DNA of 64,000 nucleotides, from assembly GCA_034434535.1 (NCBI GenBank), contig DAOTZC010000012.1, forward strand, positions 510,128 to 574,127. Direction: 5' to 3'. The first letter of the stretch is position 1. Every line of letters starts with the position of its first letter. Below are positions 1,101-48,589 of the stretch, piece by piece. The notes under the pieces were generated by a model that had not been told where the DNA came from, did not search any database, and worked only from the letters and a program-made list of their open reading frames with translations. Position numbers and translations under genes: made by a program. The stretch comes from Anaerolineales bacterium (GTDB taxonomy: Bacteria > Chloroflexota > Anaerolineae > Anaerolineales > Villigracilaceae).

Positions 1101-4100
1101 ATGCTCAAAACTCGCCCCATTTACCTCGGTGAAACCCTGCTCCCGCCGCCTCCCGCTGAAGCAAACGGCGAATACGTCCCTCTTTTGGGAGAACCCTGGT
1201 ACAAAATTGCTCACTATGACGCCTTGCCGCCTTTTTTCATGAGCATTGTCAGCAGCGGCAATCATTGGTTGTTCATATCATCAACCGGCGGGCTGACGGC
1301 AGGCCGCGCTCATGCCGACCAGGCGCTCTTTCCCTATTACACCGAAGATAAACTGACCGATAACAGCGAAAATACCGGACACAAAGCCATCTTGCGCCTG
1401 ACGCGCGGCGCGCAGACCTGGCTGTGGGAGCCGTTCTCCGTCCGGCAGCAGGGCGTTTATCGCATCGAACGCAATCTATACAAGAACATCCCTGGCACGG
1501 CAGTTCTTTTTGAAGAAGTTAATCATTCGCTCCAGTCTGTCTTCCGCTACGCCTGGCGCGCCAGCGCTCGCTTTGGGTTTGTCAAAACGGTCTGGCTACA
1601 GAACATCAGCCGCGAGACCACTTGTCGCGTGGAACTTCTGGACGGCTTGCAAAACCTGTTGCCTGCCCATGTCGATTCAGCCGTCCAAAACCAGTATAGT
1701 TGTCTGCTTGATGCCTATAAGCGCAGCGAACTAGACTCTTCAACCGGTTTAGGAATTTTCAGCCTCAACTCGCGCCTGACCGACCTGGCGGAGCCGAGCG
1801 AATCACTTCGAGCCACATCCGTCTTTCAGGTGGGGTTGAATCCGCTTGGTTTTCTGCTCGCCTCGCGGCAGTTGGATGCTTTCCGCTTTGGCGGCGAACT
1901 TCAGCCGGAAAGCGAAGCGCGCGGCCAGCGCGGCGCGTATTTTGTTCATGCTCAACTATCATTCGATGCGGGTCAGGAACATGCCTGGCACCTGGTCGCC
2001 GATGTACATCAAGACCATGCGGCTCTTATGGAATTGCGCCGATTTTTGCGCACTCCTGCCGCCGCTCAACGCCAGAACATCGAGCAGGACATCGCTTTTA
2101 CTGCTTCTAACCTGCAAAAAATTGTTGCAAGCGCCGATGGAGCGCAGGTTTCTCAAAATCAACTTGCCACTGCTCACCATTTTGCCAATGTTCTCTTCAA
2201 CGTCATGCGTGGCGGCGTGTTTACACACCAGTATTGGATAGAAAAATCTGACCTGCTCAATTATTTGGAAACCCACCAGCGCGGAATCGTCCAGCAGCAA
2301 TCCGAATTCTTTGACCCTTTGCCCGAGCGCTTTACGCTTGCTGACCTTCAGCGCTGCATTGCCCAAACGCCCCTGGCCTTGCGCCGACTTCTGCTTACCT
2401 ATCTACCCCTGGCGTTCAGCCGTCGTCACGGCGACCCCAGCCGCCCCTGGAACCGCTTCTCGATCGACTTGCAAAATCCTGATGGTTCGCAGCGCTTGAA
2501 TTACGAAGGAAACTGGCGCGATATTTTTCAGAACTGGGAAGCGCTGGCTTACTCGTATCCCGATTATGTCGAAGCGATGATAGGCGTTTTTCTGAGCGCC
2601 ACCACCGCCGATGGCTACAATCCCTATCGCATCACCCGCGCCGGGGTGGATTGGGAAGTTCCTGAAGAAGGCAATCCCTGGGCAAATATTGGTTATTGGA
2701 GCGACCATCAAATTATTTACCTGCAAAAATTGATGGAAGTCAGCCAGCGCATGCATCCTGGTGCGCTGCGTACCTGGCTGTCTCAGCCGCTTTGGAGTTA
2801 TGCCAACGTTCCTTACCGCATCAAGCCCTACGCTGACCTGCTCAAAGACCCCTACCATACCATTGTTTTCGATGATGTTCTGCACGCCCAGATTGAGCGC
2901 GATGTCTGTGTGTATGGTACAGATGCCCGCCTTTTGCGCGCTCCCGACGGAAAGCCGCTTCTGGCTTCTTTAACCGAAAAATTACTCACCCTCTTGCTTG
3001 CCAAACTGGTCAACTTTGTTCCTGAAGGCGGCATTTGGATGAATACCCAACGCCCCGAATGGAATGACGCCAATAACGCTCTGGTTGGGCGCGGGCTTTC
3101 TGTGGTTACGCTGAGTTATCTGCGGCGTTTTCTGGTTTTTTTCCAGCGCCTTTTGGAAGGCCAAACTGATTCTTTCGCCGTGCGCGTCGAAGTGGTGGAA
3201 TGGCTTCGCGCCATCAGGACGGCTTTGCAACGGTTTGAGCATTTACTGGCGGGAGAGTTCACTCCCGCCGCGCGCCGCGCCATGATGAATCAACTTGGTC
3301 AGGCAGGCAGTGATTATCGCTGGAAGGTCTATGAAAACGGTTTTTCTGAGACCTTTACCTGCCTCCCAGCCGGGGAATTGCGGTCTTTTCTCCTGCTTTC
3401 CCAGCAGTACGTGGAACAGAGCTTGCGCGCCAACCGCCGCTCCGATTCCCTCTATCATTCTTACAATTTATTGCGCCTGCAAGATGATGAAGCCCACATT
3501 GACCGGTTGTATGAAATGCTCGAAGGGCAGGTTGCCATTTTGTCCTCGGGCATGCTCTCTGCCCGGGAATCGCTCGATTTATTGCGCAGTCTCCGGCGCA
3601 GTGCGCTCTACCGCTCTGACCAGCACAGTTACATTCTCTATCCCGATAAATCTCTGACTGGCTTTCTGGAAAAGAACTGTATCTTCCCTGAAGATATTTC
3701 CACGCTGCAATTACCGGCATTGCTGGCTGAGCATGGCGAATCCTCGCTTTTTATTCGTGATTTGAACGGACAATTCCATTTCAGCGGCGGCATTCGTAAC
3801 GAACGTGATGTGCGCCGCGCGCTGGACGCTTTGCAAACTCAACCAGCTTTTGCTTCACTCGCGCAGGCCGAAAGCCAGGCTATTTTAGATTTGTTTGAGC
3901 GCGTTTTCCACCATGCCGGGTTTACTGGCCGCTCTGGCTCATTTTTTGCTTACGAAGGGCTGGGCAGCATCTACTGGCACATGGTTGCCAAACTCTTGCT
4001 GGCCGTTCAGGAAACCGCTCAACGATTCGAGCAACATCCTCTTGGCCTGGAACTACGCGCCGCTTATGAAGAAATTCGCGCAGGCATGGGTTATCACAAA

Positions 4101-4559
4101 TCCCCGGCGGAATATGGCGCTTTTCCCACCGACCCGTATTCACATACCCCCAAGCACAATGGCGCGCGTCAGCCGGGCATGACCGGCGCAGTAAAAGAAG
4201 AAATTCTCACCCGCCAGGCTGAAACCGGCCTACTTTTTGTGGATGGGAAATTAACCTTCAGCCCCTTTTTGCTTTCCAAAACCGAATTATTGAACGAACC
4301 CCGCGAATTTTCTTATCTGGATGTGACCGGCGAGGAGCAAATCCTGACTTTGCCGGCTGGTTCTCTGGCCTGTTTTGTTTGCCAAACTCCCGTCATCCTG
4401 CGGTTTGGCGCGCGAGACGAGGTGACTCTTCACCGCGCCGATGAAACCATTCAAACTCTGGCGGGGCGCGCGCTGGACGAAGAAACCAGCCGCCACATTT
4501 TCTCCCGCGATGGGAGCATTCGTCAGGTCTGGGTGACATTTTCCGCCGAAAGTCTCTGA
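1101..4559 (+). CDS. 1152-aa cytoplasmic protein, candidate GH94/GH149/GH161-like glycoside (beta-glucan) phosphorylase
   Basis: RBS GGAGAA lies upstream and there is no signal peptide. GNWRDIFQN (R473/D474 at 2517-2522) resembles the RDxxQD motif. PEWNDANNAL (3057-3068) resembles the catalytic DWNDxLN motif I recall from cellobiose-phosphorylase-type enzymes. The gene sits directly after a GH16 laminarinase and an ABC sugar permease. Confidence 0.5.
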   Translation: MLKTRPIYLGETLLPPPPAEANGEYVPLLGEPWYKIAHYDALPPFFMSIVSSGNHWLFISSTGGLTAGRAHADQALFPYYTEDKLTDNSENTGHKAILRLTRGAQTWLWEPFSVRQQGVYRIERNLYKNIPGTAVLFEEVNHSLQSVFRYAWRASARFGFVKTVWLQNISRETTCRVELLDGLQNLLPAHVDSAVQNQYSCLLDAYKRSELDSSTGLGIFSLNSRLTDLAEPSESLRATSVFQVGLNPLGFLLASRQLDAFRFGGELQPESEARGQRGAYFVHAQLSFDAGQEHAWHLVADVHQDHAALMELRRFLRTPAAAQRQNIEQDIAFTASNLQKIVASADGAQVSQNQLATAHHFANVLFNVMRGGVFTHQYWIEKSDLLNYLETHQRGIVQQQSEFFDPLPERFTLADLQRCIAQTPLALRRLLLTYLPLAFSRRHGDPSRPWNRFSIDLQNPDGSQRLNYEGNWRDIFQNWEALAYSYPDYVEAMIGVFLSATTADGYNPYRITRAGVDWEVPEEGNPWANIGYWSDHQIIYLQKLMEVSQRMHPGALRTWLSQPLWSYANVPYRIKPYADLLKDPYHTIVFDDVLHAQIERDVCVYGTDARLLRAPDGKPLLASLTEKLLTLLLAKLVNFVPEGGIWMNTQRPEWNDANNALVGRGLSVVTLSYLRRFLVFFQRLLEGQTDSFAVRVEVVEWLRAIRTALQRFEHLLAGEFTPAARRAMMNQLGQAGSDYRWKVYENGFSETFTCLPAGELRSFLLLSQQYVEQSLRANRRSDSLYHSYNLLRLQDDEAHIDRLYEMLEGQVAILSSGMLSARESLDLLRSLRRSALYRSDQHSYILYPDKSLTGFLEKNCIFPEDISTLQLPALLAEHGESSLFIRDLNGQFHFSGGIRNERDVRRALDALQTQPAFASLAQAESQAILDLFERVFHHAGFTGRSGSFFAYEGLGSIYWHMVAKLLLAVQETAQRFEQHPLGLELRAAYEEIRAGMGYHKSPAEYGAFPTDPYSHTPKHNGARQPGMTGAVKEEILTRQAETGLLFVDGKLTFSPFLLSKTELLNEPREFSYLDVTGEEQILTLPAGSLACFVCQTPVILRFGARDEVTLHRADETIQTLAGRALDEETSRHIFSRDGSIRQVWVTFSAESL

Positions 4560-6029: not shown

Positions 6030-6911
6030 ATGAACCTTGCATCCAATCTCGCCATTGCCGCCGGTATCATCGTCGAAATTCTGCTACTCTGGGAGACCTC
6101 CGACCGCCAAAAGAAAAACCAATCCACGTCGGGTTTCTTTTCGCCGGGTCTGAGCCGCTTGCAGGAGGTTATCGGCCTGGTACTGCTCGTTTCCTGGGGG
6201 GGCATTGCCCTGGCGGACTATTTCGACCCGCCCTTGAGCCTGGCGGCCTTGAGCGCGATTCAGAACGCCATAATGGGGTTCTCGTTCATGTTCCTGTTTA
6301 TCTTTGGCATGGTCAGCCCCAAACTCCTGCCGCGCGTCAATGAGCAGACCATCGTTGCCATCAGCCTGGTAGCTTTCTACGGCCTGTTCAGCCTGGCGAA
6401 GCTGGAATGGTTCTGGCTTACCGCCCTGCTCCTGCCTGCGCTGGGCGTGTTTGGAATGGCGCTGACGACCCGCGTCATCCACCCCTATCTTAAGAGCCTC
6501 TTGTATTTCTGGTATCTCGTTTGCCTGCTCATCATGGCCCTCCAGAACAACTTCGAGATGTTCATTCGGCCTACTTCTGAACTCGAATTAACGCTCCTCG
6601 ATTATTTCATCGGCGGCGCGGCGGGCATTTTCCTGCTCTTGCACAGCATTTTCCTGGCGCGTTTTTTCCTCATGCTCACCGCCCTCATCCGGCCTGCCAA
6701 TCGTCATCTCATTGTTCTTGCTATGCCACAACTCTTCGATGACCAGCAGATTCCACGCCTGAAGTTCCTGGTCATCCTGGCGCTTTTTGGCGCCATTCTC
6801 GCGCTCAACCGGCTGACCGGACTGCTTCCCTCCATCAGCGCCCTCAACCTCCTGATTTTGCTGGCGGTTCATTTTATGGAGCGCCCGTTCCAGTTGACCG
6901 AAAGGCTCTAA
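6030..6911 (+). CDS. polytopic integral membrane protein, unknown function
   Basis: 293 aa with about 8 hydrophobic helices and no recognisable motif. Lies 15 nt after the kinase-like gene. Confidence 0.55.
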   Translation: MNLASNLAIAAGIIVEILLLWETSDRQKKNQSTSGFFSPGLSRLQEVIGLVLLVSWGGIALADYFDPPLSLAALSAIQNAIMGFSFMFLFIFGMVSPKLLPRVNEQTIVAISLVAFYGLFSLAKLEWFWLTALLLPALGVFGMALTTRVIHPYLKSLLYFWYLVCLLIMALQNNFEMFIRPTSELELTLLDYFIGGAAGIFLLLHSIFLARFFLMLTALIRPANRHLIVLAMPQLFDDQQIPRLKFLVILALFGAILALNRLTGLLPSISALNLLILLAVHFMERPFQLTERL

Positions 6912-6915: not shown

Positions 6916-7473
6916 ATGCGCGTCAAACGCTGGCCCCGCTCTCTTTCGGAACTTGCGCTTCTCCCTGATGTCCTGCTCTGGTTTTTGGCGGCTCTCGCGC
7001 CGCTCATGTTCCTGTTCAGCCTCATTGCCGGGTTCGACCAGGCTGCGCAGCATCGCGGCTTGCTGGCCGACCTGGCCGCGCATGGGCGGGTCGTCTCCGC
7101 CGAAATTAATCAAATTGATTTCGAGAGCCAGCGAGGCCGCATTACTCTGTTCTACCCTGCCGAAAATGAGCAACGAGAACTTGCCGTCATTCGCATTCTG
7201 GAGTTTTACCCTGCCGATTGGCTCAACCGTCTTGAAAAAGGGCAAACCCTTGAACTGCTCTGCGTCCCGCCCGGCCCTTACCGTCATGCTTACGAGGCCG
7301 TTCCGCTTCAGTATTACCCTGCCTTTCAGCGTCATCCCGGCATCACCCGCGATATTTGGGCTGTATTCCTGTTCTTTTTGCTGGTCGCCATCTACCGGCC
7401 ACACTTTCTGTTTCTTGGCTTCGTCCCTGTTACCGATATGAGCGTGACGTTATTGAGTGAAAACCCATCATGA
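6916..7473 (+). CDS. membrane-anchored protein, unknown function
   Basis: N-terminal TM (LLWFLAALAPLMFLFSLIAGF), a soluble beta-rich middle part, and a C-terminal TM (IWAVFLFFLLVAIY). The stop overlaps the start of the next gene (ATGA at 7470-7473). Confidence 0.5.
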   Translation: MRVKRWPRSLSELALLPDVLLWFLAALAPLMFLFSLIAGFDQAAQHRGLLADLAAHGRVVSAEINQIDFESQRGRITLFYPAENEQRELAVIRILEFYPADWLNRLEKGQTLELLCVPPGPYRHAYEAVPLQYYPAFQRHPGITRDIWAVFLFFLLVAIYRPHFLFLGFVPVTDMSVTLLSENPS

Positions 7474-8645
7474 TTTTTCTGTTTGTCCTCTCCACTCTCG
7501 CTTTTCTGGCGGCTTTGCTCATTCTCTATTGGCTGCACAACCAGGCCTGGCTCGATGTTCACACTCCGCATGTCGTCCCGCCTGCCGCCGGGCCGCTGGT
7601 CTCGCTCATCGTCCCGGCCCGCAACGAGGAAAAGAACATCCGTCGCTGCGTCCAATCCCTGCTTGCCCAGGATTACCCCAGCCTTGAAATCCTGGTTTTG
7701 GAGGACCGCTCGACCGACCTGACTCCCGTCATCTTGGCCGAACTCGCCGCCCAGGACCCCCGTCTCGTTATTTTAGCAGGGCGCGACCTGCCCCCTGGCT
7801 GGGCCGGTAAACCCCATGCCCTCTACCAGGCTGCCAAATCCGCCTCTGGCGAATGGCTTTTATTCGTGGATGCCGACACTTTTCTCGACCCGAACGCCGT
7901 CTCCGCCGCCCTGGCTTCGGCCCAAAAAAACGGGGCCGATTTGTACACCATCATGACCGAGCAAATCACCGGCTCATTCTGGGAGCGGGCCGTCATGCCG
8001 CTGGTCATGACCGCGCTCTCGGTGGGGTTCTCTCCCCGCAAGGTCAACGACCCCCACACCCGCGACGCCATCGCCAACGGCCAGTTCATCCTGATTAAGC
8101 GGCCTGTCTATGAAGCCATCGGCGGCCATGAAAAACTCAAAAACCAGATAGTCGAGGACAAAGCCATCTCCGAGCAGGTAAAATGGAATGGCTACCGCCT
8201 GGTGGTGGCAGATGGGCGCGGGATTGCCCAAACCCGCATGTACACCGACCTGCCCTCCATGTGGGAAGGCTGGACCAAAAACATCTACCTCGGCCTGGCC
8301 GATAAGCCTGCCATGTTGCTACTGGGCGCGTTTGGCGCGTTTTTGGCGCTGATGGCCGCGCTGGTCATGCCAGTCTGGCCTTTGCTGGGGCTGTTGTGGT
8401 ATCTTCAGGGCGGCGGTTGGATGTCGCTGGTTGTCATCTTTCAGGCGTTGGCAGTTTGGGCTGCGTTGCTCTATTTTCGGATGCGCGTCAATGACCAAAT
8501 GGACATTCCCCGCTGGTATGCCTTCACCACTCCGCTTGGCGCGGGCATCTTCGCCGCCATGATGTTCACCTCCGCCTGGAAAGTCCTCTCCGGTCAGGGC
8601 GTCACCTGGAAGGGACGCGCCTACGACCCTAAAACGGTTCGCTAA
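7470..8645 (+). CDS. membrane-integrated family 2 glycosyltransferase
   Basis: SLIVPARNEEKNIRRCVQSLLAQDYPSLEILVLEDRSTD (GT-A N-terminus), DxD-like FVDAD, N-terminal TM plus about 4 C-terminal TMs. Translationally coupled on both sides. Confidence 0.8.
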   Translation: MIFLFVLSTLAFLAALLILYWLHNQAWLDVHTPHVVPPAAGPLVSLIVPARNEEKNIRRCVQSLLAQDYPSLEILVLEDRSTDLTPVILAELAAQDPRLVILAGRDLPPGWAGKPHALYQAAKSASGEWLLFVDADTFLDPNAVSAALASAQKNGADLYTIMTEQITGSFWERAVMPLVMTALSVGFSPRKVNDPHTRDAIANGQFILIKRPVYEAIGGHEKLKNQIVEDKAISEQVKWNGYRLVVADGRGIAQTRMYTDLPSMWEGWTKNIYLGLADKPAMLLLGAFGAFLALMAALVMPVWPLLGLLWYLQGGGWMSLVVIFQALAVWAALLYFRMRVNDQMDIPRWYAFTTPLGAGIFAAMMFTSAWKVLSGQGVTWKGRAYDPKTVR

Positions 8646-9784
8646 TGAAAAATTTTATGGAAACAAACGCAATCCCAAAGGTTTTATTGGTTGACCTCTC
8701 GCATCAATTCGGCGGCTCCAGCACCCGTGTTTTGGGATTATTATCTGCTCTGCCGAAAGGGCGGGCCGGGTTGGCGGCCATCCAGGGCAGCCCCGTGTTC
8801 GAGCAGGCCAAACGCATGGGGTTGGCTGCGCACCCGGTGGGGACGGGAAAGACCGATTGGCGCATCCTGCCTAATCTGGTTCGTCTCATCCGCGAACAGG
8901 GCTATCAGGTGTTGGATACGCAAAATATTCAATCCAAATTTTGGGGCAGTCTGGCCTCATTGTGGAGCGGCGCGGCGCTGGTTTCCACCCTCAACAGCTG
9001 GTATGACTTCGAGCATGGTGGCCGTTGGAAGGGAAAACTGTATACGGCGCTTGAACTGGCGACGAATTTTCGGCTGGGCGGTTACATCGTCGTCTCCGAA
9101 ACTGTCCGCGATGCCGTGCAAGCGGCGCACAGGAAGTCGCCGGTGGCTCTGATTTACAATGCGATTGGGCTGGATGCGAATTCAATCAACGGAGACAGGC
9201 AATGGCTGGCCGAAACCTTTGGGATTCCGCGGGATGCCCTGGTTTGCCTGGCGGTTGGCAGGCTGGTGTGGGCCAAAGGCTATGAAGACTTGCTGGATGC
9301 AATGCGCATAGTCGTTGTGGAAAATTCATCCATCTACTGCCTGGTGCTTGGGGATGGGGAATTGCGGGCAAGTCTGGAAGAGAAAATCCGCCAGGATAAC
9401 CTGGCGAACCGCGTTATCCTGGCCGGATATCAGCCGCGCGATACGGTTTTGGCCGCGCTCAAAGCCAGCGATATTTTCGTCATGCCATCCCGTCAGGAGG
9501 GAACGCCGCTTGCCCTGCTTGAAGCTGCCGCCATGGGAGTTCCCATCCTGGCAAGCGCTTGCGGTGGCATCCCAGAGATGGTCACGGATGGGGAACAGGC
9601 CCTGCTCGTCCCCCCGGGCAATTCAACGGTGCTGGCGCAAGCCCTGCTTCAACTTGCCAAAGACCCTGAATTGCGCGCGCGGCTCGTTCGGAATGCCAGG
9701 ACGCGGGTTCAGCAGTCGTTCAGTTTGGAAGCCCAGGCCCGGGCGACGTTGGAGGTGTATCAAAAAGTGCTTGTTCATCATTGA
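8645..9784 (+). CDS. GT4-family (GT-B) glycosyltransferase
   Basis: C-terminal EX7E-type region PSRQEGTPLALLEAAAMGVPILASACGGIPEMV. The start overlaps the preceding stop (TAATG). Confidence 0.85.
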   Translation: MKNFMETNAIPKVLLVDLSHQFGGSSTRVLGLLSALPKGRAGLAAIQGSPVFEQAKRMGLAAHPVGTGKTDWRILPNLVRLIREQGYQVLDTQNIQSKFWGSLASLWSGAALVSTLNSWYDFEHGGRWKGKLYTALELATNFRLGGYIVVSETVRDAVQAAHRKSPVALIYNAIGLDANSINGDRQWLAETFGIPRDALVCLAVGRLVWAKGYEDLLDAMRIVVVENSSIYCLVLGDGELRASLEEKIRQDNLANRVILAGYQPRDTVLAALKASDIFVMPSRQEGTPLALLEAAAMGVPILASACGGIPEMVTDGEQALLVPPGNSTVLAQALLQLAKDPELRARLVRNARTRVQQSFSLEAQARATLEVYQKVLVHH

Positions 9785-9831
9785 ATTTTCATAATTTGGA
9801 TAAAAATAAAGAAATTTGGGGCTTTTAAGTC

Positions 9832-9859
9832 TTGCCATGACCAAAAAATCGGCTATAAT
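9832..9859 (+). promoter_or_regulatory. sigma70-like promoter for the synthase-type EPS operon
   Basis: TTGCCA (9832-9837), a 16-nt spacer, then perfect TATAAT (9854-9859), in an A/T-rich 218-bp intergenic region. Confidence 0.45.
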
Positions 9860-10002
9860 CTTTATTCCAGTGAGCTTTCAAATTTGATAGGTGGTTTGAT
9901 GATGCGTTCGTGAATGTTGATATGGGGGTGTTGGGGAGCAAAACGGATGATGAATGTTTTCTCCTCGTGATGGATAAACGTCAAAGGGAAAAGAGAGAGG
10001 CT

Positions 10003-11163
10003 ATGGAATTTAACCTGTTTCTACGCACGTTGCAGCGCGGATGGTGGATAATTGTCTTGTCAATTTTTATCGCAACCAACGTCTCGCTGGCAATTTCATA
10101 CATAACGCCGCCTGTCTATCAAACGACTGCCCGTTATGTCGTTTCGCCCAACGCTGGTCTTTTTTCCAGCAGTTGGGAATTGCTATCCAGCCTGGATACG
10201 CTAGACCGGCGCTCGATTGTGAACACTTATCGGGAGATGATTGCAAGTCCATCGGTTTATGAGCGGTCTCCAGAAATTCAGAAAATCAAACAGCAATCTT
10301 TAGATGATTTTGAAGTTTCTGTAGCAGTCATCCCCGATACCAATATCTTGCGGCTGACTGTAGAAGGCCCTGACCCTCGAAGGATTGTGGTGGTGGCCCA
10401 TGCTATCAGCACCGAAGTGCTGAGTTACATGAACGAGTTGAACCCAATTTATAACCTGAGCGTTCTCGAGGAACCCCAGTTACCCACTGCCCCTATTCGC
10501 CCCCAACCTCTTGAAAATGCTCTTTTGGCATCCCTGTTTGGAGGCATGGTGGGGCTGGTGCTGGCTTTTTCGCGCGAACAACTGCAAAATACGCTCGACA
10601 AATTGCGCGAACGCTCGATTATCGACCCGGTTTCATCCGCATATACTCGCGCTTATTTTGAGCGACGACTGCTTGAGGAAACTACCCAACATCCGGATGG
10701 CAATTTTGTGATGGGAATTATCAATCTGCGTGGTCTTGAGCAGGTCATGAACGTATTGCCCGAGCCGATTTTCAACCGCGTCCTTGGAACGGTTTCCAAA
10801 AAACTTAAGAATGAACTGCGCGGGCGGGATATTGTCGGACGCTGGAGCGACACGCAACTTGCAGTTATCCTTCCAGGAACGCCAGAATCAGCCGTAGAGC
10901 CGGCTTTTCGGCGCATTCAGGTCTATCTTTCCGAAGCCGTTCCGGTTGATAATGCCGGGGATATGGCTTTTAATCCCGACCCGTGTATTGGCGTTATTAT
11001 GCACAAACAGTTTGAGACGGTTGAGAGCATCATTGAGCGCGCGCAAATGGCTGTTGAAAAAGCCTCTGCTTTGTCTGAAGCGACCGTTGTATTTCTGAAA
11101 AATTCCTATTTTTCTGAAGAACGCATAGGCAGCACGATTGAGAAAAACGGAACCAGTGACTGA
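10003..11163 (+). CDS. polysaccharide co-polymerase (Wzz/PCP) fused to a degenerate GGDEF domain with intact RxxD I-site
   Basis: ATG 10003 is preferred over GTG 9910 because RBS GAGAGAGG lies 2 nt upstream. PCP features: TM1 WWIIVLSIFIATNVSLAI, P-rich LPTAPIRPQP, TM2 LLASLFGGMVGLVLAF. The C-terminal domain (about 10624-11073) aligns by eye to GGDEF: DPVSSAYTRAYF, RGRD (10819-10830), and SDTQL (10846-10860) in place of GG(D/E)EF, followed by AVILPGT. Confidence 0.75.
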   Translation: MEFNLFLRTLQRGWWIIVLSIFIATNVSLAISYITPPVYQTTARYVVSPNAGLFSSSWELLSSLDTLDRRSIVNTYREMIASPSVYERSPEIQKIKQQSLDDFEVSVAVIPDTNILRLTVEGPDPRRIVVVAHAISTEVLSYMNELNPIYNLSVLEEPQLPTAPIRPQPLENALLASLFGGMVGLVLAFSREQLQNTLDKLRERSIIDPVSSAYTRAYFERRLLEETTQHPDGNFVMGIINLRGLEQVMNVLPEPIFNRVLGTVSKKLKNELRGRDIVGRWSDTQLAVILPGTPESAVEPAFRRIQVYLSEAVPVDNAGDMAFNPDPCIGVIMHKQFETVESIIERAQMAVEKASALSEATVVFLKNSYFSEERIGSTIEKNGTSD

Positions 11164-11193
11164 TATCCTGCCAGGTTTTTGAGAGGACTGAAC

Positions 11194-13485
11194 ATGGGTA
11201 CAAATGACAATCGCATTTTAACGATGAGCGTATTGGCGCTCGCTCTTGTTGCATTACTGATAACAAATATTCATCCCGTTGCCGCTTTGGGGATTCAGAA
11301 TCAGTCGACCGACTCAACCGGGGATGCCTTTACGTTTGGTCAGCTTGGGTATGCCGAAAAAGTGATGATTAGCCCTTATGATTCGTTGCAAATTCTTTTT
11401 GGAGTGCCATCGAATTGGGCATTAATTCCTGGAACTGAACTTACTTTACGTTTCAACTATGCCAGTAACCAGGTTATATCGGCAGTCGATGGTCTTGGGG
11501 GCATTCCGGGGGGCACTCTGCGCGTTAGTTTCAATGGCGTAACCTTGAAAACCATTCTTCTCACTGCCAATGGCGATTTTGTCGAAACTATCTCTATTCC
11601 TTCGGATGCGCTGACCGCCAATTCGGTGGATGGGCGTCACCGCATCTCTTTTCTCTTTGATTCCCGCTTTAATTGCGACGATACTTCTGCCAACGCATCG
11701 CTCATCATCAGCGCTGGCTCATCCATCGCCTTGAATCATGAGATTGTCCCTATTACGCCAGACTTGACGATTTTTCCCCGTCCCATTTACCAGCCCGATT
11801 CAATTATCCCTTCACTCACGACCATTATTATTCCCGATAATCCATCCGAAGCGGAGATGCGGGCTGCCTTAACGGTTTCTGCCGGGTTGGGCGCTCTGAC
11901 AAATGGCAGATTGCAATATCGCATGGTTTCAGCCGCTCAGGTTTCTGAAGCCCAAAAATCGGATTCCAGTATCATCCTGGTTGGATTGCCCAAAAGCCTG
12001 CCTGTTTTAAAGAATATTGCTGTACCGTACCCTCTTCAAAATGACGTATGGGCTCTGGCTGGCATGGAGCCTGACGACGGCCTCGTGCAAATGGCTCTTT
12101 CACCCTGGAATCAAAACAATCTAGCTTTGGTCGTGAGTGGAAATTCTGAAGCAGGGCTGGTGAAGGCTGCGCAGGCCATCAGCGCTGGTAATCTGGTTCC
12201 AGCAGGCCGACCCGATGTTTCGGTCATCAGCGCGGTCAACCCTCTTTCTGTGAGTGATACCATTCCCCAAGACCAGACTCTCTTCAGCCTGGGTTACGAA
12301 AACAGGTCGCTTGGCGGTTTCGAGGGAACGTATTTATCTTATTTCTTCCCTGCCTCGGCTGAACAAGTGCTTTCGATTGGCGGGTATATTGATTTTGTAT
12401 CCTCGCACACTAATCTGCTCGATTTTGAACGCAGTGGAATTACGGTTTATCTGAACAGGACCTTCGTTGGCAGCATTAAATTTACGGGCGATGTTGACCA
12501 GGTGACTACGACCAGGCTGAATCTTCTGCCTGGCACCATTCGCCGCGGCAATAATTTGCTGGAAATTTACAGCGACCTGGTTCCAATTTATGACTGCTAC
12601 TCTCCTGATTTGTCCAGCAGCACGGTTGTCGTGAGCGGCCTGACCAATATCCATCTGCCGGTGACTGACCAACAAATTGAATTGAATACGCTCCTTAAGT
12701 TAAACGACTATCCGTCCATGTTCATGACAGACCGCAACCTGAGTGATTTGGCGTTCATTGTTGCCAGAAATGACCCAACCGGCTGGGAGGTGGCGTCGAA
12801 ACTCGCTTTTGATATTGGCGCAGCCGCCTCTATTCCCGTTGCGAACCTTGACGTATCTTATGGCGATTCTGTCCCCGCGCCTGTTCGCGATGAGCGCAGT
12901 CTGATACTGGTAGGACGTGCCAGCAAAATGCCCATCCTTGCTGAATTGAATGACAAACTACCGGCTCCTTTTGTGCCCGAGAGCGATGAAGCCACCCAGC
13001 CTGCTCTGCTGGTCAATTACCGCTTGCTGCCGGGCATCAGCGTTGGTTATTTGCAACTCATCCAGTCGCCCTGGAATGCGGCCAACAACATCCTGGTGGT
13101 TGCTGGAAATACCGATGCTGGCCTGCCAATGGCCGGGGAAAAATTGACCAGGTCGGAGTTCAGTTCTCAATTGAATGGGAATTTCGCGGTGCTTTACGCT
13201 GACCAGATTTTGACGACTGATACCCGCCTGGGACAATCCAAAGAGCCGGTCATTTCTGACCTGCCGGCGGAAGCCCTGGCGACCTCATCCCCGCCGACGC
13301 AGCCAACGCCGGATGTTTTTAGCGAAGCGGTTGAAATCGAAGCAACGCCCTCATGGGTATTGCCCTCCATCATTACTCTCAGCGCGGCAACGGTTATCAT
13401 GTTGTTTGTTCTTCTTGGACGGGCCTTCATGGCCAAGAAGGTTCCTGCCAAAAAACAAGTTGGCGAGAAATCTGCCGACGATTAG
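11194..13485 (+). CDS. BcsB-like periplasmic synthase subunit with C-terminal TM anchor
   Basis: ATG 11194 with RBS GAGAGGA (the TTG at 11179 is less likely). Signal anchor, two internally repeated modules (GTLRVSFNGVTLKTILL / SGITVYLNRTFVGSIKF and NNLALVVSGNSEAGL / NNILVVAGNTDAGL), and a single C-terminal TM (IITLSAATVIMLFVLLG). This is the BcsB/YdaN-like layout. Adjacent to a membrane GT2. Confidence 0.55.
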   Translation: MGTNDNRILTMSVLALALVALLITNIHPVAALGIQNQSTDSTGDAFTFGQLGYAEKVMISPYDSLQILFGVPSNWALIPGTELTLRFNYASNQVISAVDGLGGIPGGTLRVSFNGVTLKTILLTANGDFVETISIPSDALTANSVDGRHRISFLFDSRFNCDDTSANASLIISAGSSIALNHEIVPITPDLTIFPRPIYQPDSIIPSLTTIIIPDNPSEAEMRAALTVSAGLGALTNGRLQYRMVSAAQVSEAQKSDSSIILVGLPKSLPVLKNIAVPYPLQNDVWALAGMEPDDGLVQMALSPWNQNNLALVVSGNSEAGLVKAAQAISAGNLVPAGRPDVSVISAVNPLSVSDTIPQDQTLFSLGYENRSLGGFEGTYLSYFFPASAEQVLSIGGYIDFVSSHTNLLDFERSGITVYLNRTFVGSIKFTGDVDQVTTTRLNLLPGTIRRGNNLLEIYSDLVPIYDCYSPDLSSSTVVVSGLTNIHLPVTDQQIELNTLLKLNDYPSMFMTDRNLSDLAFIVARNDPTGWEVASKLAFDIGAAASIPVANLDVSYGDSVPAPVRDERSLILVGRASKMPILAELNDKLPAPFVPESDEATQPALLVNYRLLPGISVGYLQLIQSPWNAANNILVVAGNTDAGLPMAGEKLTRSEFSSQLNGNFAVLYADQILTTDTRLGQSKEPVISDLPAEALATSSPPTQPTPDVFSEAVEIEATPSWVLPSIITLSAATVIMLFVLLGRAFMAKKVPAKKQVGEKSADD

Positions 13486-13496
13486 GATAAGATGTC

Positions 13497-14672
13497 ATGG
13501 CTGTTCTGTTCTGGCTGGCTGTTTCGTTCGTAATATATACTTACCTGGGATATCCGCTACTGGTCTTCTTACTTTCCCGGTTAAGGCCAGCTCGTTTCCC
13601 AAAGACAAGTGAGTTACCGGTTGTGACCTTGTTGATTGCGGCTTACAACGAAGAGAAAGTTATCGCCCAAAAATTGGATAATTCATTAACGCTCGATTAC
13701 CCGCGCGAAAAACTCCAAATCATCGTTGCGGCGGATGGGTCTTCTGACAAAACTCCAGAAATCGTGCGGCAATTTGAGCCACAGGGTGTTGTGTTAAGTT
13801 ACATTCCTGAGCGAAACGGGAAAATGGCGGCCATTACCCGTGCAATGTCGCTGGCGTGCGGAGAAATCGTCATTTTTTCAGATGCCAACAACATGTATGA
13901 CCGACAGGCTATTCAGTGGCTGGTTGCGCCTTATGCCGATGGAAAAGTCGGCGCAACCACTGGCGCCAAGTTGATTATCGAAGATGGGCGTCCGTTGAGC
14001 TCGTCCGAAGGCTTTTACTGGAAATACGAATCTTGGATTAAAGAGAGCGAAACCCGTCTCAGTACCTGTACATCTGCGGTGGGGGAGATGCTGTCTATTC
14101 GTAAAGAATTGTTCGTCGCCCCAGAGCGCAGCATTGTGAACGATGACCGCTATATGGTCTTTGACCTGATTCGGCGCGGCTACCGCGTTTACTATACTCC
14201 TCGGGCGCGTTCCTACGAAACTGTTTCTAAATCTGCTGGCGACGAAATTGTGCGCCGCACGCGCATTACCGCTGGCGCATACCAGACAATGGCTATGGCA
14301 GCCAAACTGTTGCCGTTCGACCGTCCACTGGTTTTGTGGCAAATGGTTTCGCACAAGTTTTTCAGGGCTTTTGTGCCGTTTGTGATGCTGCTTGCTCTGC
14401 TTTCTAATTTTGCGTTGTTTTTTTGGCCCGCTCCGTCCAGTCTAAATGCTTTCTGGGCGGTTGCGCCCCCGTTCAACCAAATTTTTTTGGCTTTGCAGGG
14501 CTTATTTTATGGGTTAGCAGTGCTTGGCAATCTCTTTCCTGCGCGTGGCAAATTAGGGAAACTCCTGTATATTCCGACCTTCCTGGTCAATTCCAATTTG
14601 GCGGCCTTGTTAGGGTTGTATAGTTTTCTGACGAATAAAAACCCCCATCTTTGGAAGCGCGTCAATCGTTGA
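13497..14672 (+). CDS. membrane-embedded processive-type family 2 glycosyltransferase (PgaC/IcaA/YdaM-like synthase), no PilZ domain
   Basis: N-terminal TM; VVTLLIAAYNEEKVIAQKLDNSLTLDYP, AADGSSDKT, FSDANN (DxD-like), GEMLSIRKELF, VRRTRITAG at the Q/RxxRW position. About 4 C-terminal TMs. Confidence 0.8.
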   Translation: MAVLFWLAVSFVIYTYLGYPLLVFLLSRLRPARFPKTSELPVVTLLIAAYNEEKVIAQKLDNSLTLDYPREKLQIIVAADGSSDKTPEIVRQFEPQGVVLSYIPERNGKMAAITRAMSLACGEIVIFSDANNMYDRQAIQWLVAPYADGKVGATTGAKLIIEDGRPLSSSEGFYWKYESWIKESETRLSTCTSAVGEMLSIRKELFVAPERSIVNDDRYMVFDLIRRGYRVYYTPRARSYETVSKSAGDEIVRRTRITAGAYQTMAMAAKLLPFDRPLVLWQMVSHKFFRAFVPFVMLLALLSNFALFFWPAPSSLNAFWAVAPPFNQIFLALQGLFYGLAVLGNLFPARGKLGKLLYIPTFLVNSNLAALLGLYSFLTNKNPHLWKRVNR

Positions 14673-14691
14673 ACAGTCGTCCTTAGAGAGT

Positions 14692-15732
14692 TTGCGCATG
14701 GCATCCTGGCGAAAAAAAGTTCTCGACACTGGATTGAACCTGGCTATTCGGGCTGGGGTTTTTAACTTTTCGCGTTTTCTTGCACCTGAAACACTTACTG
14801 TTCTGAATTATCACCGGATTGACAATGCGGATTCCCCTGATTTCGACCTGTTCAAACCCAACGTCAGCGCCACCCCAGAAGAATTCGCCCGGCAGATGGA
14901 TTATCTTCAGGCACACTATAATGTCATCTCATGTGAACAACTGGACCACTGGCTTCAGGGCAAAGCGACTTTGCCTTCGCGCCCTGCCATTATCACGTTT
15001 GATGATGGGTATTCTGACAACCTTTTGAACGCTTTCCCCGTTTTGCAAGCCCGTAATTTGAGCGCCATTATTTTCCTGACCACCGGTTTTATTGGAACCA
15101 GACAGCCTTTTTATTGGGATAGCGTGGCTTATTGTTTTCATCATACTCGCCGTGACCATGCCGATTTACCTCTTTTAGGTGAGCGTCACTGGGCGGATGC
15201 TGCCTCTCGTGACAAGGTTATGCTCGCCTGGGTAGAAGCTCTAAAAAAAGTCCCCGAAACGCAAAAGCGCGTCCTGATTGAAAGGATTGGGGATTTTCTG
15301 GATGTGCCTATTCCAGAAGAAAGGTTTTCTAACCTGTACCTGACCTGGACCCAGGTGCGAGAGATGAGCCAGAAAGGGATGGAGTTTGGCTCTCATACCG
15401 TCAACCATCCCATTCTGACGCGCGTCTCGCCGGAAGAGGCGCGTTGCGAACTGATTGAATCGAAACGCCGCCTGGAGGAAGAAATTCAAAAGCCAGTCAC
15501 GAGCCTGGCGTATCCAAATGGGCAAGGGGCGGATTTTTCAAGGGCTGTCATGCGCATTGTGGCCGAAACCGGTTTCCGGTTGGCGTTCAGTCTGTTGCCA
15601 GGGCCAACGCGCTTGAGCACGGTCAAAAACAAACCATTGGACATTCGCCGGGTCTATATTGGGCGAAACCATTCTTTCCCCCGGTTTGTGGCTGCGCTGG
15701 CCGGGCTTCCGCGCCTGCTTAAGTGGCTTTGA
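14692..15732 (+). CDS. polysaccharide deacetylase (CE4/NodB-type)
   Basis: NodB motif 1 ITFDDGYSDN. The later SHTVNHP is consistent with the His-containing motifs. Sits downstream of the GT2 synthase, as in PNAG-type loci. Confidence 0.8.
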   Translation: MRMASWRKKVLDTGLNLAIRAGVFNFSRFLAPETLTVLNYHRIDNADSPDFDLFKPNVSATPEEFARQMDYLQAHYNVISCEQLDHWLQGKATLPSRPAIITFDDGYSDNLLNAFPVLQARNLSAIIFLTTGFIGTRQPFYWDSVAYCFHHTRRDHADLPLLGERHWADAASRDKVMLAWVEALKKVPETQKRVLIERIGDFLDVPIPEERFSNLYLTWTQVREMSQKGMEFGSHTVNHPILTRVSPEEARCELIESKRRLEEEIQKPVTSLAYPNGQGADFSRAVMRIVAETGFRLAFSLLPGPTRLSTVKNKPLDIRRVYIGRNHSFPRFVAALAGLPRLLKWL

Positions 15733-16957
15733 GCTGGTGGGCGTAAACATCTAATATGTTGCGGGCTATGGGGGGCCAGGCAAACCTGGTTTCTGATAAG
15801 TTTTTAGCGTAATGTCCCATTTCGGTGGCCCGGGCTTTGTCATTGATGATGGTTGTAATTGCCTTGCACAATTCTTTCGGGGAACCGGGGGTTACAAGAA
15901 AGCCACTTAACCCTTCATCCACCACGTCGGGGAAGGCGCCCACGTTGGTTGCCACCACTGGTTTGCCAAACGAGTAAGCCACTTGAACTGCGCCGCTTTG
16001 AGAGCTGTTCAGATAGGGTAAAACCACAACATCTGACCGGTGCATCAGTGGCGCTACTTCTTCCATCGCCAGGTAACGGCTGTCGAAGAGGATTGCATCT
16101 CGAAGCCTCAATTCTTCCACCTGTCTGAAAAGCGCATTCATATCCATGTACTTGGTAGGCATGCCAGCAATCAACAGGCGTGCCAGTGGATTTTGCGCAT
16201 GTACTCCCTCGAATGCCTTAATCAAATCGGGCAGGCCTTTGCTGGGCGTGAGCGTGCCAAAAAACAGAACCAATCGGTGTTCGTCGGTGAGCCCATATTT
16301 TGTTTGCATAGCGGCGAGCCGCGCTTCCATATCTGGCGGCTGGGGGAAGATTTGCTCGTTGCCGTGTACAATTTCGCGCAGCCGCCCGCGCGGAATCATT
16401 GGATATAGCGCGTGAAATTTGTTCAGGTTACTTGCGCCGTGCAGGAAAATGATGTCGAAGGATTGGAAGACGATGACCTTCATTCGGTCTGCAAGGCGTG
16501 CCATTATTCCCTGCGTTTCACGCGACTCAAACTCGTGACAAATTTGAGCCAGTCTTAGCCCACGCCATTTCATGTATTGCAGGAAGAAACCCTCGAAAGG
16601 AAATTCCACTTCGCCAAACTGTACGATGTCAGGCTGGGAACGAACCAAATAACGGGTGAGCCGCATTAACTGATAGACTAGCCGGATTGCCCGAATGCCT
16701 CGCCGCGCCGTCCAGAACAATTTTCGCGCGATGCTTTCCAGTTTGTTATGGGGTGGCCTGGTCAGCCGGGGGTCGGAGAGTGGCCAGAGTTTCAGGAACT
16801 GGTTGACTGTGAAGTTATGCGGAAACTTTTGCAATTCATAGCCCTGGCTGGTAATCAGGGTGACATCGGCGCCCTGTTCCGCCATGGCCTGGCATAGTTG
16901 GTAGGCGTAGTGAATCATGCCGCCTGCGCTGCGGGGTTCGACAACGAAAATTTTCAT
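15719..16957 (-). CDS. GT4-family glycosyltransferase
   Basis: Start set at ATG 16957 (MKIFVVEP...), which overlaps the upstream stop as ATGA. The ORF-track extension to 17101 lies inside the upstream gene. GT-B C-terminal region YLNSSQSGAVQVAYSFGKPVVATNVGAFPDVV. Confidence 0.8.
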   Translation of the reverse strand: MKIFVVEPRSAGGMIHYAYQLCQAMAEQGADVTLITSQGYELQKFPHNFTVNQFLKLWPLSDPRLTRPPHNKLESIARKLFWTARRGIRAIRLVYQLMRLTRYLVRSQPDIVQFGEVEFPFEGFFLQYMKWRGLRLAQICHEFESRETQGIMARLADRMKVIVFQSFDIIFLHGASNLNKFHALYPMIPRGRLREIVHGNEQIFPQPPDMEARLAAMQTKYGLTDEHRLVLFFGTLTPSKGLPDLIKAFEGVHAQNPLARLLIAGMPTKYMDMNALFRQVEELRLRDAILFDSRYLAMEEVAPLMHRSDVVVLPYLNSSQSGAVQVAYSFGKPVVATNVGAFPDVVDEGLSGFLVTPGSPKELCKAITTIINDKARATEMGHYAKNLSETRFAWPPIARNILDVYAHQLKAT

Positions 16958-18105
16958 GATGAACGCTTTCCTATCAGGGAATGGTATAGTACTTCGAGCG
17001 CTGTGATTTGCGCCTGAATGTTGAACTTTTTCTGGCAAATGGCCTGTCCGGCGGTTCCCCAGGCCTTTCGCAGGGCTGAATTTTCGGCCAATTGGGCGCA
17101 AGCATGGGCCAGAGCCGATACGTCTCCGGGCGGGAGCAGCCGGCCATTGACACCGTCTTCAATCATCTCTGGCACGCCGCCTACGTTCGAGGCGATAACT
17201 GCCTTTTGGGCGGCCATTGCTTCCATCAGCACGGTTGGCAGGGCTTCTGTTAATGTGGGTAAGACGAAAAAGTCGCATGCTGGCAAAATTTCATGAATAT
17301 CTTTACGTTGTCCGGCAAAAATAACCTGCGTTGTCAACCCCAGGTTGCGCGCCATTTCTTTTAGGGTGGGGCCGTGTTCACCATCCCCCACAATTAAATA
17401 TTGCAGGTTGGGATGGGTGTCTCTCAATTGCGCCATTGCCTGTAGCATGAACTGGATGCCTTTGGGTTCGCGCAGTACGGCGACTGTTACGGCGACGATG
17501 GAATCAGGCGCCAGACCGAATTCTTTTCGTTTGGCAATGCGCTCTTCCGTCGAAGTATCTTTATAAATGGACAGGTCAATTCCGTTGTAAAGGGTGATAA
17601 TTTTTTCGTCTGGAATTTTTCCGTCCCGAAGATAGTGCAGGCGGGTAATTTTTGAGACGCCGATGGACCGGTTGCAAAGATGCTTAAGCGCAGCCAGCGT
17701 GATTTGGTATCGCCATCGAGCGCGCTGCTCTTGCGGGTTATCAAGGGTGTGCAGAGTGGCGACGCATGGAATTCCCATGAGCCGGGCTGCCAGACTGCCC
17801 AGAATGATTGAAAATTCAAGCTGCGTGTGAACCAGTTGTGGTTGGTGACGGCGCAGATAGGTGATGATTTTATACAAATTGGTCGGATGCCGCAGGGTGG
17901 GGATGCTCAACAAATCTACAGGAATGCCAGCATTTTGCAGGTCTTTTGCGACGGGGTTGCCGCCGCGCTCTTGCAGCGCGCAGACGCGCAGGTCGAATCG
18001 CTCTCGGTCGAAACGCTCCAAAATGGCTAGCGTCAATCGTTCTGCGCCGCCGTGTCCCAAACTGTCTATCATCCAGATGATTTTGGGTTTCACTGCGTTA
18101 TCCAT
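16954..18105 (-). CDS. GT4-family glycosyltransferase
   Basis: IWMIDSLGHGGAERL N-terminus and PTLTEALPTVLMEAMAAQKAVIASNVGGVPEMIEDG (EX7E region). Confidence 0.85.
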   Translation of the reverse strand: MDNAVKPKIIWMIDSLGHGGAERLTLAILERFDRERFDLRVCALQERGGNPVAKDLQNAGIPVDLLSIPTLRHPTNLYKIITYLRRHQPQLVHTQLEFSIILGSLAARLMGIPCVATLHTLDNPQEQRARWRYQITLAALKHLCNRSIGVSKITRLHYLRDGKIPDEKIITLYNGIDLSIYKDTSTEERIAKRKEFGLAPDSIVAVTVAVLREPKGIQFMLQAMAQLRDTHPNLQYLIVGDGEHGPTLKEMARNLGLTTQVIFAGQRKDIHEILPACDFFVLPTLTEALPTVLMEAMAAQKAVIASNVGGVPEMIEDGVNGRLLPPGDVSALAHACAQLAENSALRKAWGTAGQAICQKKFNIQAQITALEVLYHSLIGKRSS

Positions 18106-19675: not shown

Positions 19676-19718
19676 AATGGTTCCTTACGCGTGGATGTGC
19701 TTTAAGTAATGTTGGTTT

Positions 19719-21188: not shown

Positions 21189-21190
21189 GT

Positions 21191-22399: not shown

Positions 22400-22430
22400 T
22401 GAATCACCCGGTATATATTTTGGGTACTGG

Positions 22431-24149: not shown

Positions 24150-24180
24150 GGTGCTCTCTCGCATGTTTTGCTGCATTGGT

Positions 24181-25362: not shown

Positions 25363-25381
25363 GCTTTCTTTGGACGATATC

Positions 25382-26554: not shown

Positions 26555-26632
26555 ATAATCACTCCCCAGGAACCCTGGTTACCTCTAAGTTTTCCTCGCG
26601 TTGGCTTGTTCCAGTTCAAGAAAAGATGCATT

Positions 26633-27301: not shown

Positions 27302-27385
27302 GATAGATTCTCCTTCTGTCACCCTTGATTTTGGAGTTCGAACAGTCACTTGAGCAAAAATCGAAACGCAATTTGCATGTTTTTA

Positions 27386-47213: not shown

Positions 47214-47225
47214 AGTGTCCTCGCC

Positions 47226-48581: not shown

Positions 48582-48589
48582 GGTTCCTC

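Follow-up and report, generated by a model that had tools for sequence, protein, structure and literature searches.

A Wzz-type polysaccharide co-polymerase fused to a degenerate GGDEF domain, a predicted c-di-GMP receptor, in an Anaerolineales exopolysaccharide cluster

Degenerate GGDEF domains which bind cyclic di-GMP (c-di-GMP) at the inhibitory site (I-site) and switch on exopolysaccharide (EPS) synthesis are an established class of receptors, and analogous operons have been characterised. In Listeria monocytogenes the degenerate domain of PssE, when isolated, binds c-di-GMP at two molecules per protein (Kd 0.79 uM), and PssE is essential for the EPS made by PssC, a family-2 glycosyltransferase (GT2), and PssD, a BcsB-like protein (PMC4125290). 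YdaK of Bacillus subtilis (ydaJKLMN) has four transmembrane (TM) helices, the motif SDERI and an RxxD five residues upstream of it, and the replacements R202A or D205A abolish EPS (PMC5422440). Here we analyse a locus in which the novelty lies in the fusion partner and not in the principle: a gene joining a Wzz-type polysaccharide co-polymerase (PCP) to a degenerate GGDEF domain, hereafter Wzz-dGGDEF. It was found in a stretch of 64,000 nt (the window) of the Anaerolineales bacterium contig DAOTZC010000012.1, positions 510,128-574,127, forward strand. On balance we favour the reading that Wzz-dGGDEF is the PCP of an Anaerolineales EPS cluster, and that its dead GGDEF end acts as a c-di-GMP receptor which switches on polymerisation or export.

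The likeness to PssE and YdaK concerns both protein and operon. All are membrane-anchored dead GGDEF proteins with RxxD five residues before the motif position (SDERI in YdaK, SDTQL in the window protein), and are encoded in EPS operons which combine a PgaC/IcaA-like GT2 devoid of PilZ, a BcsB-like protein and the degenerate GGDEF protein. Going by the published descriptions, the anchors of PssE and YdaK are plain TM helices (four in YdaK) and no PCP is present, whereas the anchor of the window protein is a full Wzz-type co-polymerase. The Pss and Yda clusters have neither Wzx, Wzy nor priming transferase; the window cluster has all of these, and a separate YdaK-like protein besides. PelD binds c-di-GMP at an RxxD motif and a downstream arginine. 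It resembles Wzz-dGGDEF as a degenerate GGDEF I-site receptor at the membrane that licenses EPS synthesis, and differs by its four TM helices and GAF domain before the degenerate domain, by the synthase-dependent nature of the Pel system and by the lack of a PCP domain. In Pseudomonas aeruginosa this inner-membrane receptor is required for Pel synthesis (PMC7288161).

Two further groups share one half of the protein or its general design. Wzc (PCP-2a, with a fused bacterial tyrosine kinase, BY-kinase) and CpsC/CapA (PCP-2b, with the separate CpsD/CapB) show the same succession of TM1, outside domain, Pro-rich segment, TM2 and cytoplasmic module. The CpsC-type family TIGR01006 is the best family-level match of the N-terminal half, fold matches extend to Wzc, and the cluster is of the Wzx/Wzy type. 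The cytoplasmic module of the window protein is, however, a degenerate GGDEF domain and not a P-loop tyrosine kinase. Alg44 is the alginate co-polymerase, with a cytoplasmic PilZ domain and a partner domain of the membrane fusion protein (MFP)/HlyD type. Here also a cytoplasmic c-di-GMP receptor is joined across the membrane to a co-polymerase module for post-translational control of polymerisation, but the receptor is PilZ, the domains stand in the reverse order, the partner is MFP/HlyD instead of a Wzz-type PCP, and the system is synthase-dependent. Participation of a PilZ-domain c-di-GMP receptor in alginate production is documented (PMC7288161). Nearest by sequence and fold are active stalk-helix cyclases (DgcR, 6zxm; SiaD, 7e6g; PleD; DgcB), which share the stalk and the RGRDxVGRW segment. 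Since GG(D/E)EF, the metal-binding Asp and the guanine-binding Asn of these enzymes are all missing from it, Wzz-dGGDEF is not a diguanylate cyclase.

The gene lies in an open reading frame (ORF) which mechanically spans 9910-11163 on the forward strand. The same MEF/MEI start is present in all Wzz-dGGDEF homologues, so that the ATG at 10003 is taken as the biological start; its product is identical to a 386-aa protein of public collections (P0001). The features of the protein and of its surroundings are collected in Table 1. A full-length AlphaFold model (predicted local distance difference test, pLDDT, 74.6) comprises a helix 2-34 (TM1), a mixed alpha/beta outside domain, a single helix 169-204 and a beta-alpha domain. 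That the protein consists of a PCP followed by a C-terminus of GGDEF fold is practically certain. This architecture had been proposed in an earlier inspection of the stretch from its letters alone (the sequence-only reading), and every motif named there lies where it had been placed. Both halves are recognised by Pfam above the cut-offs: Wzz PF02706 at residues 7-87 (41.9 bits, cut-off 25.5) and GGDEF PF00990 at residues 206-355 (45.6 bits, cut-off 23.8).

In the PCP half, residues 151-192, which take in the Pro-rich segment and TM2, also give a weak GNVR match in Pfam. NCBIfam TIGR01006, the CpsC-type chain-length determinant, aligns with residues 6-198 (E 2.4e-16), a match that falls short of the full-length equivalog cut-off of this model. 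A fold search was needed here, because the sequence-only search of the PDB with the N-terminal half returned marginal PCP matches (0.0039-0.04) along with spurious matches to TAL effectors. With a separate model of residues 1-203 (pLDDT 80.4), all 50 matches listed by Foldseek (PDB) are PCPs, namely KpsE, Wzc, WzzE and WzzB, with E from 1e-7 to 3e-5. Sequence features and the secondary structure of the models give the PCP topology of TM1, outside alpha/beta domain, Pro-rich motif and TM2; Pfam, TIGR01006 and Foldseek of residues 1-203 agree with this layout, which the sequence-only reading had described. P164 and P167 of the Pro-rich segment are invariant among homologues, and the PCP domain as a whole is conserved to the same degree as the degenerate GGDEF domain. 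By the positive-inside rule both termini would be cytoplasmic (N-in/C-in). The protein is a member of the Wzz/PCP superfamily, its PCP part being nearest to the short Gram-positive PCP-2b type (CpsC/CapA) and not to PCP-2a. No other PCP is encoded in the cluster, which includes Wzx, Wzy_C and Bac_transf; the protein may form a ring oligomer and control chain length or export together with Wzy.

The stalk segment FSREQLQN...LRERS, which continues TM2 into the cytoplasm, is highly conserved among homologues, and the best fold matches of stalk plus GGDEF part are the stalk-bearing cyclases SiaD and DgcB (Foldseek). All the 50 matches listed for the full-length model in the PDB are diguanylate cyclases, including SiaD, PleD, DgcB, DgcR, WspR and SadC; isolated GGDEF domains superpose on it with a target-normalised TM-score of 0.79-0.86 and a root-mean-square deviation of about 2.1-2.5 Å. 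A PDB profile search (profile built from 32 family members) reaches DgcR at E 1.3e-14. TIGR00254 scores 38.6 against a cut-off of 37.4, and in NCBIfam the C-terminal part likewise aligns with a number of diguanylate cyclases. The GGDEF-like cytoplasmic C-terminus seen by eye in the sequence-only reading is in this way recovered by Pfam, by the DgcR profile alignment and by structure prediction, and the protein is a member of the GGDEF domain family (PF00990).

The catalytic signatures, by contrast with those of active cyclases, are gone. The domain opens with DPVSSAYTRAYF (residues 208-219). In the register with DgcR, dksql stands against GGEEF, inlrGle against iDiDkFK and RgrD against RksD; SDTQL therefore holds the GG(D/E)EF position, N241 that of the metal-binding Asp and a glutamate that of the Lys, and the position of the guanine-binding Asn is variable. 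Conservation was assessed on 120 homologues clustered at 90% identity, and on a distant sample of 106 representatives containing both halves (out of the best 150; 50% identity or less). Position 241 is N in 111 of the 120 homologues, positions 282-285 vary with an entropy of 1.2-3.1 bits, and GG[DE]EF occurs in none of the 106 distant representatives. The replacement of GG(D/E)EF by SDTQL and of DxDxFK by IINLRGLEQV, already read from the letters, holds in the alignment and across the homologues. The domain is very probably devoid of cyclase activity, judging by these residues. An active cyclase or a GTP sensor was considered and rejected, catalytic and substrate residues being all lost.

The I-site shows the opposite pattern of conservation: R273, D276 and R304 are fixed while residues 282-285 drift, and this is not due to chance. 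The primary I-site of GGDEF domains consists of RxxD (R359 and D362 in PleD) and R390, and is completed by R313 of a neighbouring domain (PMC7288161). R273, D276 and R304 of Wzz-dGGDEF correspond to PleD R359, D362 and R390. R304, which the sequence-only reading had overlooked, lies 18 residues after the degenerate motif, at the same offset as the Arg of DgcR; the offset presumably also fits that of R390 in PleD. Five residues separate D276 from S282, and the I-site geometry claimed for RGRD withstands both the DgcR register and the comparison of homologues: R273, D276, R280, W281 and R304 are invariant in 120 out of 120. With the triad fixed in all homologues and R304 placed as in DgcR, the intramolecular part of the site is complete, and nothing else in the domain is as constrained. 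Two genuine cyclases retrieved by a pattern scan carry RGRDVVGRW-GGEEF where the window protein has RGRDIVGRW-SDTQL; the segment RGRDxVGRW being common to both, the catalytic motif alone has been cleanly replaced. Among the distant representatives RxxD is retained in 86, D276 in 99 and the whole triad in 54, D276 being the best-conserved residue of the GGDEF domain. These residues make it quite likely that the I-site of Wzz-dGGDEF binds c-di-GMP. Overall, the observation made in the sequence-only reading is confirmed and its interpretation supported, all its computable claims having held.

A mechanism can be proposed on this basis. Rising cellular c-di-GMP would occupy R273/D276/R304, probably as an intercalated dimer. 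The cytoplasmic domains would then re-orient or pair, and the change would travel via the rigid stalk-TM2 helix to the PCP oligomer. As output, polymerisation and/or export would be turned on, carried out by Wzy with Wzx and by the presumably co-transcribed BcsB-like/GT2/deacetylase module. By analogy, the degenerate GGDEF domain would occupy the place, and probably the regulatory role, of the BY-kinase of PCP-2 proteins, and would act like the separate receptors PssE, YdaK and PelD. Anaerolineales, a poorly studied order, thus probably switch polymer assembly on by c-di-GMP and not by tyrosine phosphorylation. A bolder version, which we put forward tentatively and at less than even chance, is that c-di-GMP took over the job of the tyrosine-phosphorylation cycle in these bacteria, ligand binding to a ring of dead GGDEF domains fixing the oligomeric or conformational state of the Wzz-type co-polymerase and thereby directly gating a hybrid machine made of Wzx/Wzy and of the BcsB-like/GT2/deacetylase module.

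BY-kinases were looked for in the window and in relatives. No BY-kinase is encoded in the 64-kb window, and no kinase-like P-loop protein was found among the window ORFs scanned. The Walker A pattern GxGK[ST] is absent from all window ORFs of at least 150 aa, and neither a Tyr-rich tail nor a phosphatase gene was seen in the window. The sequence-only reading had set the protein against PCP-2a proteins and their BY-kinase: the kinase position is indeed taken by a GGDEF fold, the kinase being absent from the window, with the caveat that the PCP part is nearest to PCP-2b. As no kinase is fused or adjacent, Wzz-dGGDEF is neither PCP-2a nor PCP-2b in the defining sense. An ATPase next to the distant relative P0137 (locus L034, 9613-10377) was considered as a BY-kinase partner and rejected: it is ParA/BcsQ-like, with the Walker A KGGVAKTT and no Tyr cluster. 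This ATPase has a weak CBP_BcsQ match and recalls BcsQ of cellulose systems.

The cluster encodes a second degenerate GGDEF protein, unseen in the sequence-only reading, with about four TM helices (4TM-dGGDEF in what follows). It has RQTD (residues 200-203) five residues before PEGHF and R231 at +18, all three conserved in homologues, so that two I-site c-di-GMP receptors are predicted for the cluster. In relatives it is always paired with Bac_transf, and in most lineages the pair stands directly upstream of Wzz-dGGDEF on the same strand. This second receptor and the BcsB-like, GT2 and deacetylase genes just downstream of Wzz-dGGDEF, which the sequence-only reading had not seen either, relate the system to the characterised Pss of Listeria and Yda of B. 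subtilis.

Several observations weigh against the reading of Wzz-dGGDEF as a c-di-GMP switch. About 20 of the 106 distant representatives are without RxxD (P0184, with KEET, is an example), and the fusion can therefore persist without I-site. The equivalent of PleD R313, the residue which cross-links neighbouring domains, is mostly Gln in the family according to a manual alignment. The second receptor could be the real c-di-GMP switch. A regex scan found no active GGDEF, EAL or HD-GYP gene in the window, and the only GG[DE]EF matches in the 34 fetched loci are in L030 and L031, which are unrelated and not from Anaerolineales, with none in Anaerolineales loci. Finally, the regulated target may be either Wzy-dependent polymerisation or the GT2/BcsB-like module.

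The choice of target is the subject of the first alternative, in which Wzz-dGGDEF is a PssE/YdaK-type activator of the adjacent PilZ-less GT2 and BcsB-like protein only, its PCP part serving mainly as anchor or scaffold and Wzy polymerisation not being concerned. The Wzz-dGGDEF, BcsB-like, GT2 and deacetylase genes are co-directional with gaps of 11-19 bp, and a promoter-like site before them and a terminator-like hairpin after them, both from consensus scans, suggest a four-gene transcription unit. Among the Anaerolineales loci reaching that far, down to 47% identity, only L024 and L029 do not keep the order of the four, and a BcsB-like gene stands beside Wzz-dGGDEF in all Anaerolineales loci extending far enough downstream except L015 and L026. 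Such a block, with its PgaC/IcaA-like GT2, speaks for this alternative, as does the fact that Pss and Yda run the same logic with a PilZ-less GT2, a BcsB-like protein and a degenerate GGDEF receptor. It is nevertheless unlikely. Distant members adjoin Wzx/Wzy without GT2 (L032: Bac_transf, Wzz-dGGDEF, BcsB-like, Wzx, Wzy, GT4, deacetylase) or without GT2 and BcsB-like protein (L033: Wzz-dGGDEF with lost I-site, then Wzx, acetyltransferase, Wzy, GT4). With L034 (Wzz-dGGDEF, ParA/BcsQ-like ATPase, Wzy, GT2, BcsB-like), these loci indicate that the constant partner family-wide is the Wzx/Wzy set, and that BcsB-like protein and GT2 are a frequent addition. Moreover a mere anchor is hard to reconcile with a PCP domain as conserved as the degenerate GGDEF domain; the role of synthase activator suits the separate 4TM-dGGDEF at least equally; and the GT2, when its translation is read by eye, has RRTRI where processive synthases have QxxRW, with no clear QxxRW.

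A second alternative, which we hold to be improbable, would make the degenerate domain a ligand-independent scaffold, that is, a module for interaction or oligomerisation with no nucleotide sensing, as when Staphylococcus aureus GdpS recruits DgkB. Degenerate GGDEF domains without signalling function do exist (PMC11962490), and the absence of RxxD from about one fifth of the distant representatives and of cyclase genes nearby would fit this view; conservation is however strictest precisely in the triad that contacts c-di-GMP (120/120; D276 in 99/106), while the rest of the former active site drifts. Very improbable is a site for another nucleotide ((p)ppGpp, GTP, another cyclic dinucleotide) or a cyclase whose active site is unorthodox: GTP sensors occur among degenerate GGDEF domains, and the PDB entries 9g85 and 9g86 are of PleD with c-di-GMP and (p)ppGpp bound together, but here the determinants for GTP and catalysis are lost (metal Asp to Asn, Lys position Glu, Asn position variable, GG(D/E)EF in 0/106) and the conserved triad is the canonical c-di-GMP site.

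The Wzz-dGGDEF gene lies in a complete polysaccharide cluster of the Wzx/Wzy type. On the minus strand 15719-28261, besides the genes of Table 1, are two Acetyltransf_6 proteins flanking a 590-aa ORF, and a GH26. The region before Wzz-dGGDEF may contain a regulatory leader. Both promoter-like hexamers are conserved in the intergenic DNA of L006, L009 and L010, and partly in L011 and L025, and downstream of them GATGTTTTCTCCTCGT...AATAAACGTCAAA...AAAGAGAGAGG is conserved in close relatives; in the consensus scan, promoter-like matches in the region are no more numerous than expected by chance. A c-di-GMP riboswitch or other known RNA was rejected, as no Rfam match at gathering threshold was obtained in the whole window, the 218-bp leader included.

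Other observations on the cluster are as follows. BcsB usually counts as a partner found in synthase-dependent systems alone. A BcsB-like protein is found within a Wzx/Wzy-type cluster in the window, in L032 and in L034, and in L032 it stands between PCP and Wzx/Wzy without adjoining GT2 synthase. The G+C content of the EPS cluster (window 10001-28000) is 0.47-0.51, against 0.53-0.57 upstream and 0.58-0.60 at 30-36 kb; this, with the plasmid location in Leptolinea sp. HRD-7, hints that the cluster may be mobile or exchanged. At its 3' end the deacetylase gene shares 14 bp with the end of the convergent GT4 ORF (15719-15732). The two GT4 ORFs of the minus strand, as listed, overlap each other by 148 bp (16954-17101), probably on account of a mechanical start of the downstream one (TTG at 17101) placed too far upstream. 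Four ORFs have no Pfam match: 1101-4559 (+, 1152 aa), 6030-6911 (+, 293 aa), 6916-7473 (+, 185 aa) and 22431-24203 (-, 590 aa). The last, which lies between the two Acetyltransf_6 paralogues, has no NCBIfam match either and no counterpart among the fetched loci. Close relatives also have the 293-aa and 185-aa ORFs upstream of the cluster; the 1152-aa ORF recurs there in L009 only. Unrelated to the finding are two tandem sets of branched-chain-amino-acid-type ABC genes (ATPase and permease pairs, one Peripla_BP_6) at 45697-56725 (-), and, at 39872-41041 (-), a 389-aa protein with two N_BRCA1_IG (immunoglobulin-like) domains adjoining an M14 carboxypeptidase.

Table 1. Features of the Wzz-dGGDEF gene and of the surrounding cluster (positions in the window; residues of the Wzz-dGGDEF protein).
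Feature	Position	Strand	Residues	Basis or remark
GT2 (HpnB/CruG-like)	7470-8645	+		family searches
GT4	8645-9784	+		family searches
AT-rich gap, possible leader, 218 bp	9785-10002	+		upstream of Wzz-dGGDEF gene
Promoter-like site TTGCCA-16-TATAAT	9832-9859	+		consensus scan, 11/12 match
Wzz-dGGDEF gene (386 aa), PCP fused to degenerate GGDEF	10003-11163	+		ORF, Pfam, NCBIfam, identical public protein, homologues
TM1, after short basic cytoplasmic N-terminus	10042-10104	+	14-34	sequence; helix 2-34 in both models
Extracytoplasmic PCP alpha/beta domain (outside region of about 135 aa)	10105-10473	+	35-157	Pfam Wzz, TIGR01006, Foldseek
Pro-rich segment PQLPTAPIRPQP	10474-10509	+	158-169	sequence; GNVR/PCP C-terminal motif matches
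TM2 LLASLFGGMVGLVLAF	10522-10569	+	174-189	aligns with TM2 of WzzB 6rbg and Wzc 7nhr
Cytoplasmic stalk helix continuous with TM2	10570-10623	+	190-207	models (one helix, 169-204)
Degenerate GGDEF domain	10624-11073	+	208-357	PF00990, DgcR profile match, Foldseek
IINLRGLEQV, former metal-binding strand (DxDxFK in cyclases), Asp replaced by N241	10717-10746	+	239-248	DgcR alignment
RGRD, RxxD of primary I-site (R273, D276)	10819-10830	+	273-276	invariant in 120/120
SDTQL at GG(D/E)EF position (dead active site)	10846-10860	+	282-286	DgcR alignment, homologue conservation
R304, third I-site residue (PleD R390 equivalent)	10912-10914	+	304	invariant in 120/120; aligned with DgcR Arg, same offset
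BcsB-like protein, 768 aa, C-terminal membrane anchor	11179-13485	+		PF03170 at 1.5e-36; 15 bp after Wzz-dGGDEF
Membrane GT2, PgaC/IcaA-like, without PilZ	13497-14672	+		best solved relative has minimal cellulose-synthase-like fold
Polysaccharide deacetylase, PgaB/IcaB-like N-terminal domain	14692-15732	+		family searches
Terminator-like hairpin after deacetylase gene	15771-15794	+		consensus scan only
GT4, GT4, Wzy_C polymerase-like (18098-19675), Wzx flippase (19719-21188)	15719-21188	-		family searches; conserved in relatives
Bac_transf priming phosphoglycosyl transferase	26633-27349	-		family search
Second predicted c-di-GMP receptor, 291 aa, about 4 TM helices and degenerate GGDEF, YdaK/PssE-like	27386-28261	-		family searches, homologues

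The extent of the family was assessed by homologue searches. A first search gave at least 270 clusters, all with Wzz and GGDEF and about 376-390 aa long, for which databases have no other names than "diguanylate cyclase (GGDEF)-like protein" and "capsular polysaccharide biosynthesis protein". When 1.84 billion representatives were searched with a profile, 271 proteins scored E ≤ 1e-30. The named members without exception, and 26 genome loci except three, are from Anaerolineales or other Chloroflexota, among them Candidatus Villigracilis and the cultured isolate Leptolinea sp. HRD-7, where the gene is on a 212-kb plasmid (AP024711, L024) and has RSND...KTQL in place of RGRD...SDTQL. The three outlying loci are a 3.5-kb contig binned as Flavobacteriales, which we take to be mis-binned, and the unrelated true cyclases of L030 and L031. 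The family is large and appears confined to Anaerolineales. Longer members keep the architecture and have extra C-terminal tails: E3_binding (peripheral-subunit-binding), helix-turn-helix or DUF4096 transposase (P0236, P0244, P0225, P0133), the transposase tail being probably an artefact of a fused gene call. Literature searches on Wzz with GGDEF, PCP with GGDEF and Anaerolineae with GGDEF found no paper on the fusion, in keeping with the sequence-only reading, which knew of no characterised example. As far as the searched literature goes, neither the Wzz-GGDEF fusion nor an action of c-di-GMP on the co-polymerase of a Wzx/Wzy-type cluster has been characterised.

The cases of post-translational control of polysaccharide synthesis by c-di-GMP known so far are nearly all from synthase-dependent systems (BcsA, Alg44, PelD, PgaCD, PssE, YdaK), and in Wzx/Wzy pathways the co-polymerase is believed to be the point of control, through tyrosine phosphorylation. 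A PCP with a c-di-GMP receptor at the kinase position would join these two regulatory worlds. If the bolder version above is true, it would provide the first example of c-di-GMP acting directly and post-translationally on the co-polymerase of a Wzy-dependent pathway. Wzz-dGGDEF would also offer a simple system for studying how a cytoplasmic signal alters PCP function. For annotation, the name "diguanylate cyclase" given to all members of the family is almost certainly an error, and makes the phylum seem richer in cyclases than it is. The order Anaerolineales comprises filamentous bacteria, abundant and for the most part uncultured, that live in sludge, digesters and sediments, and the formation of flocs and granules there is determined by matrix polymers. 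The Wzz-dGGDEF family is a hallmark of this order, and through such polymers it would have ecological relevance.

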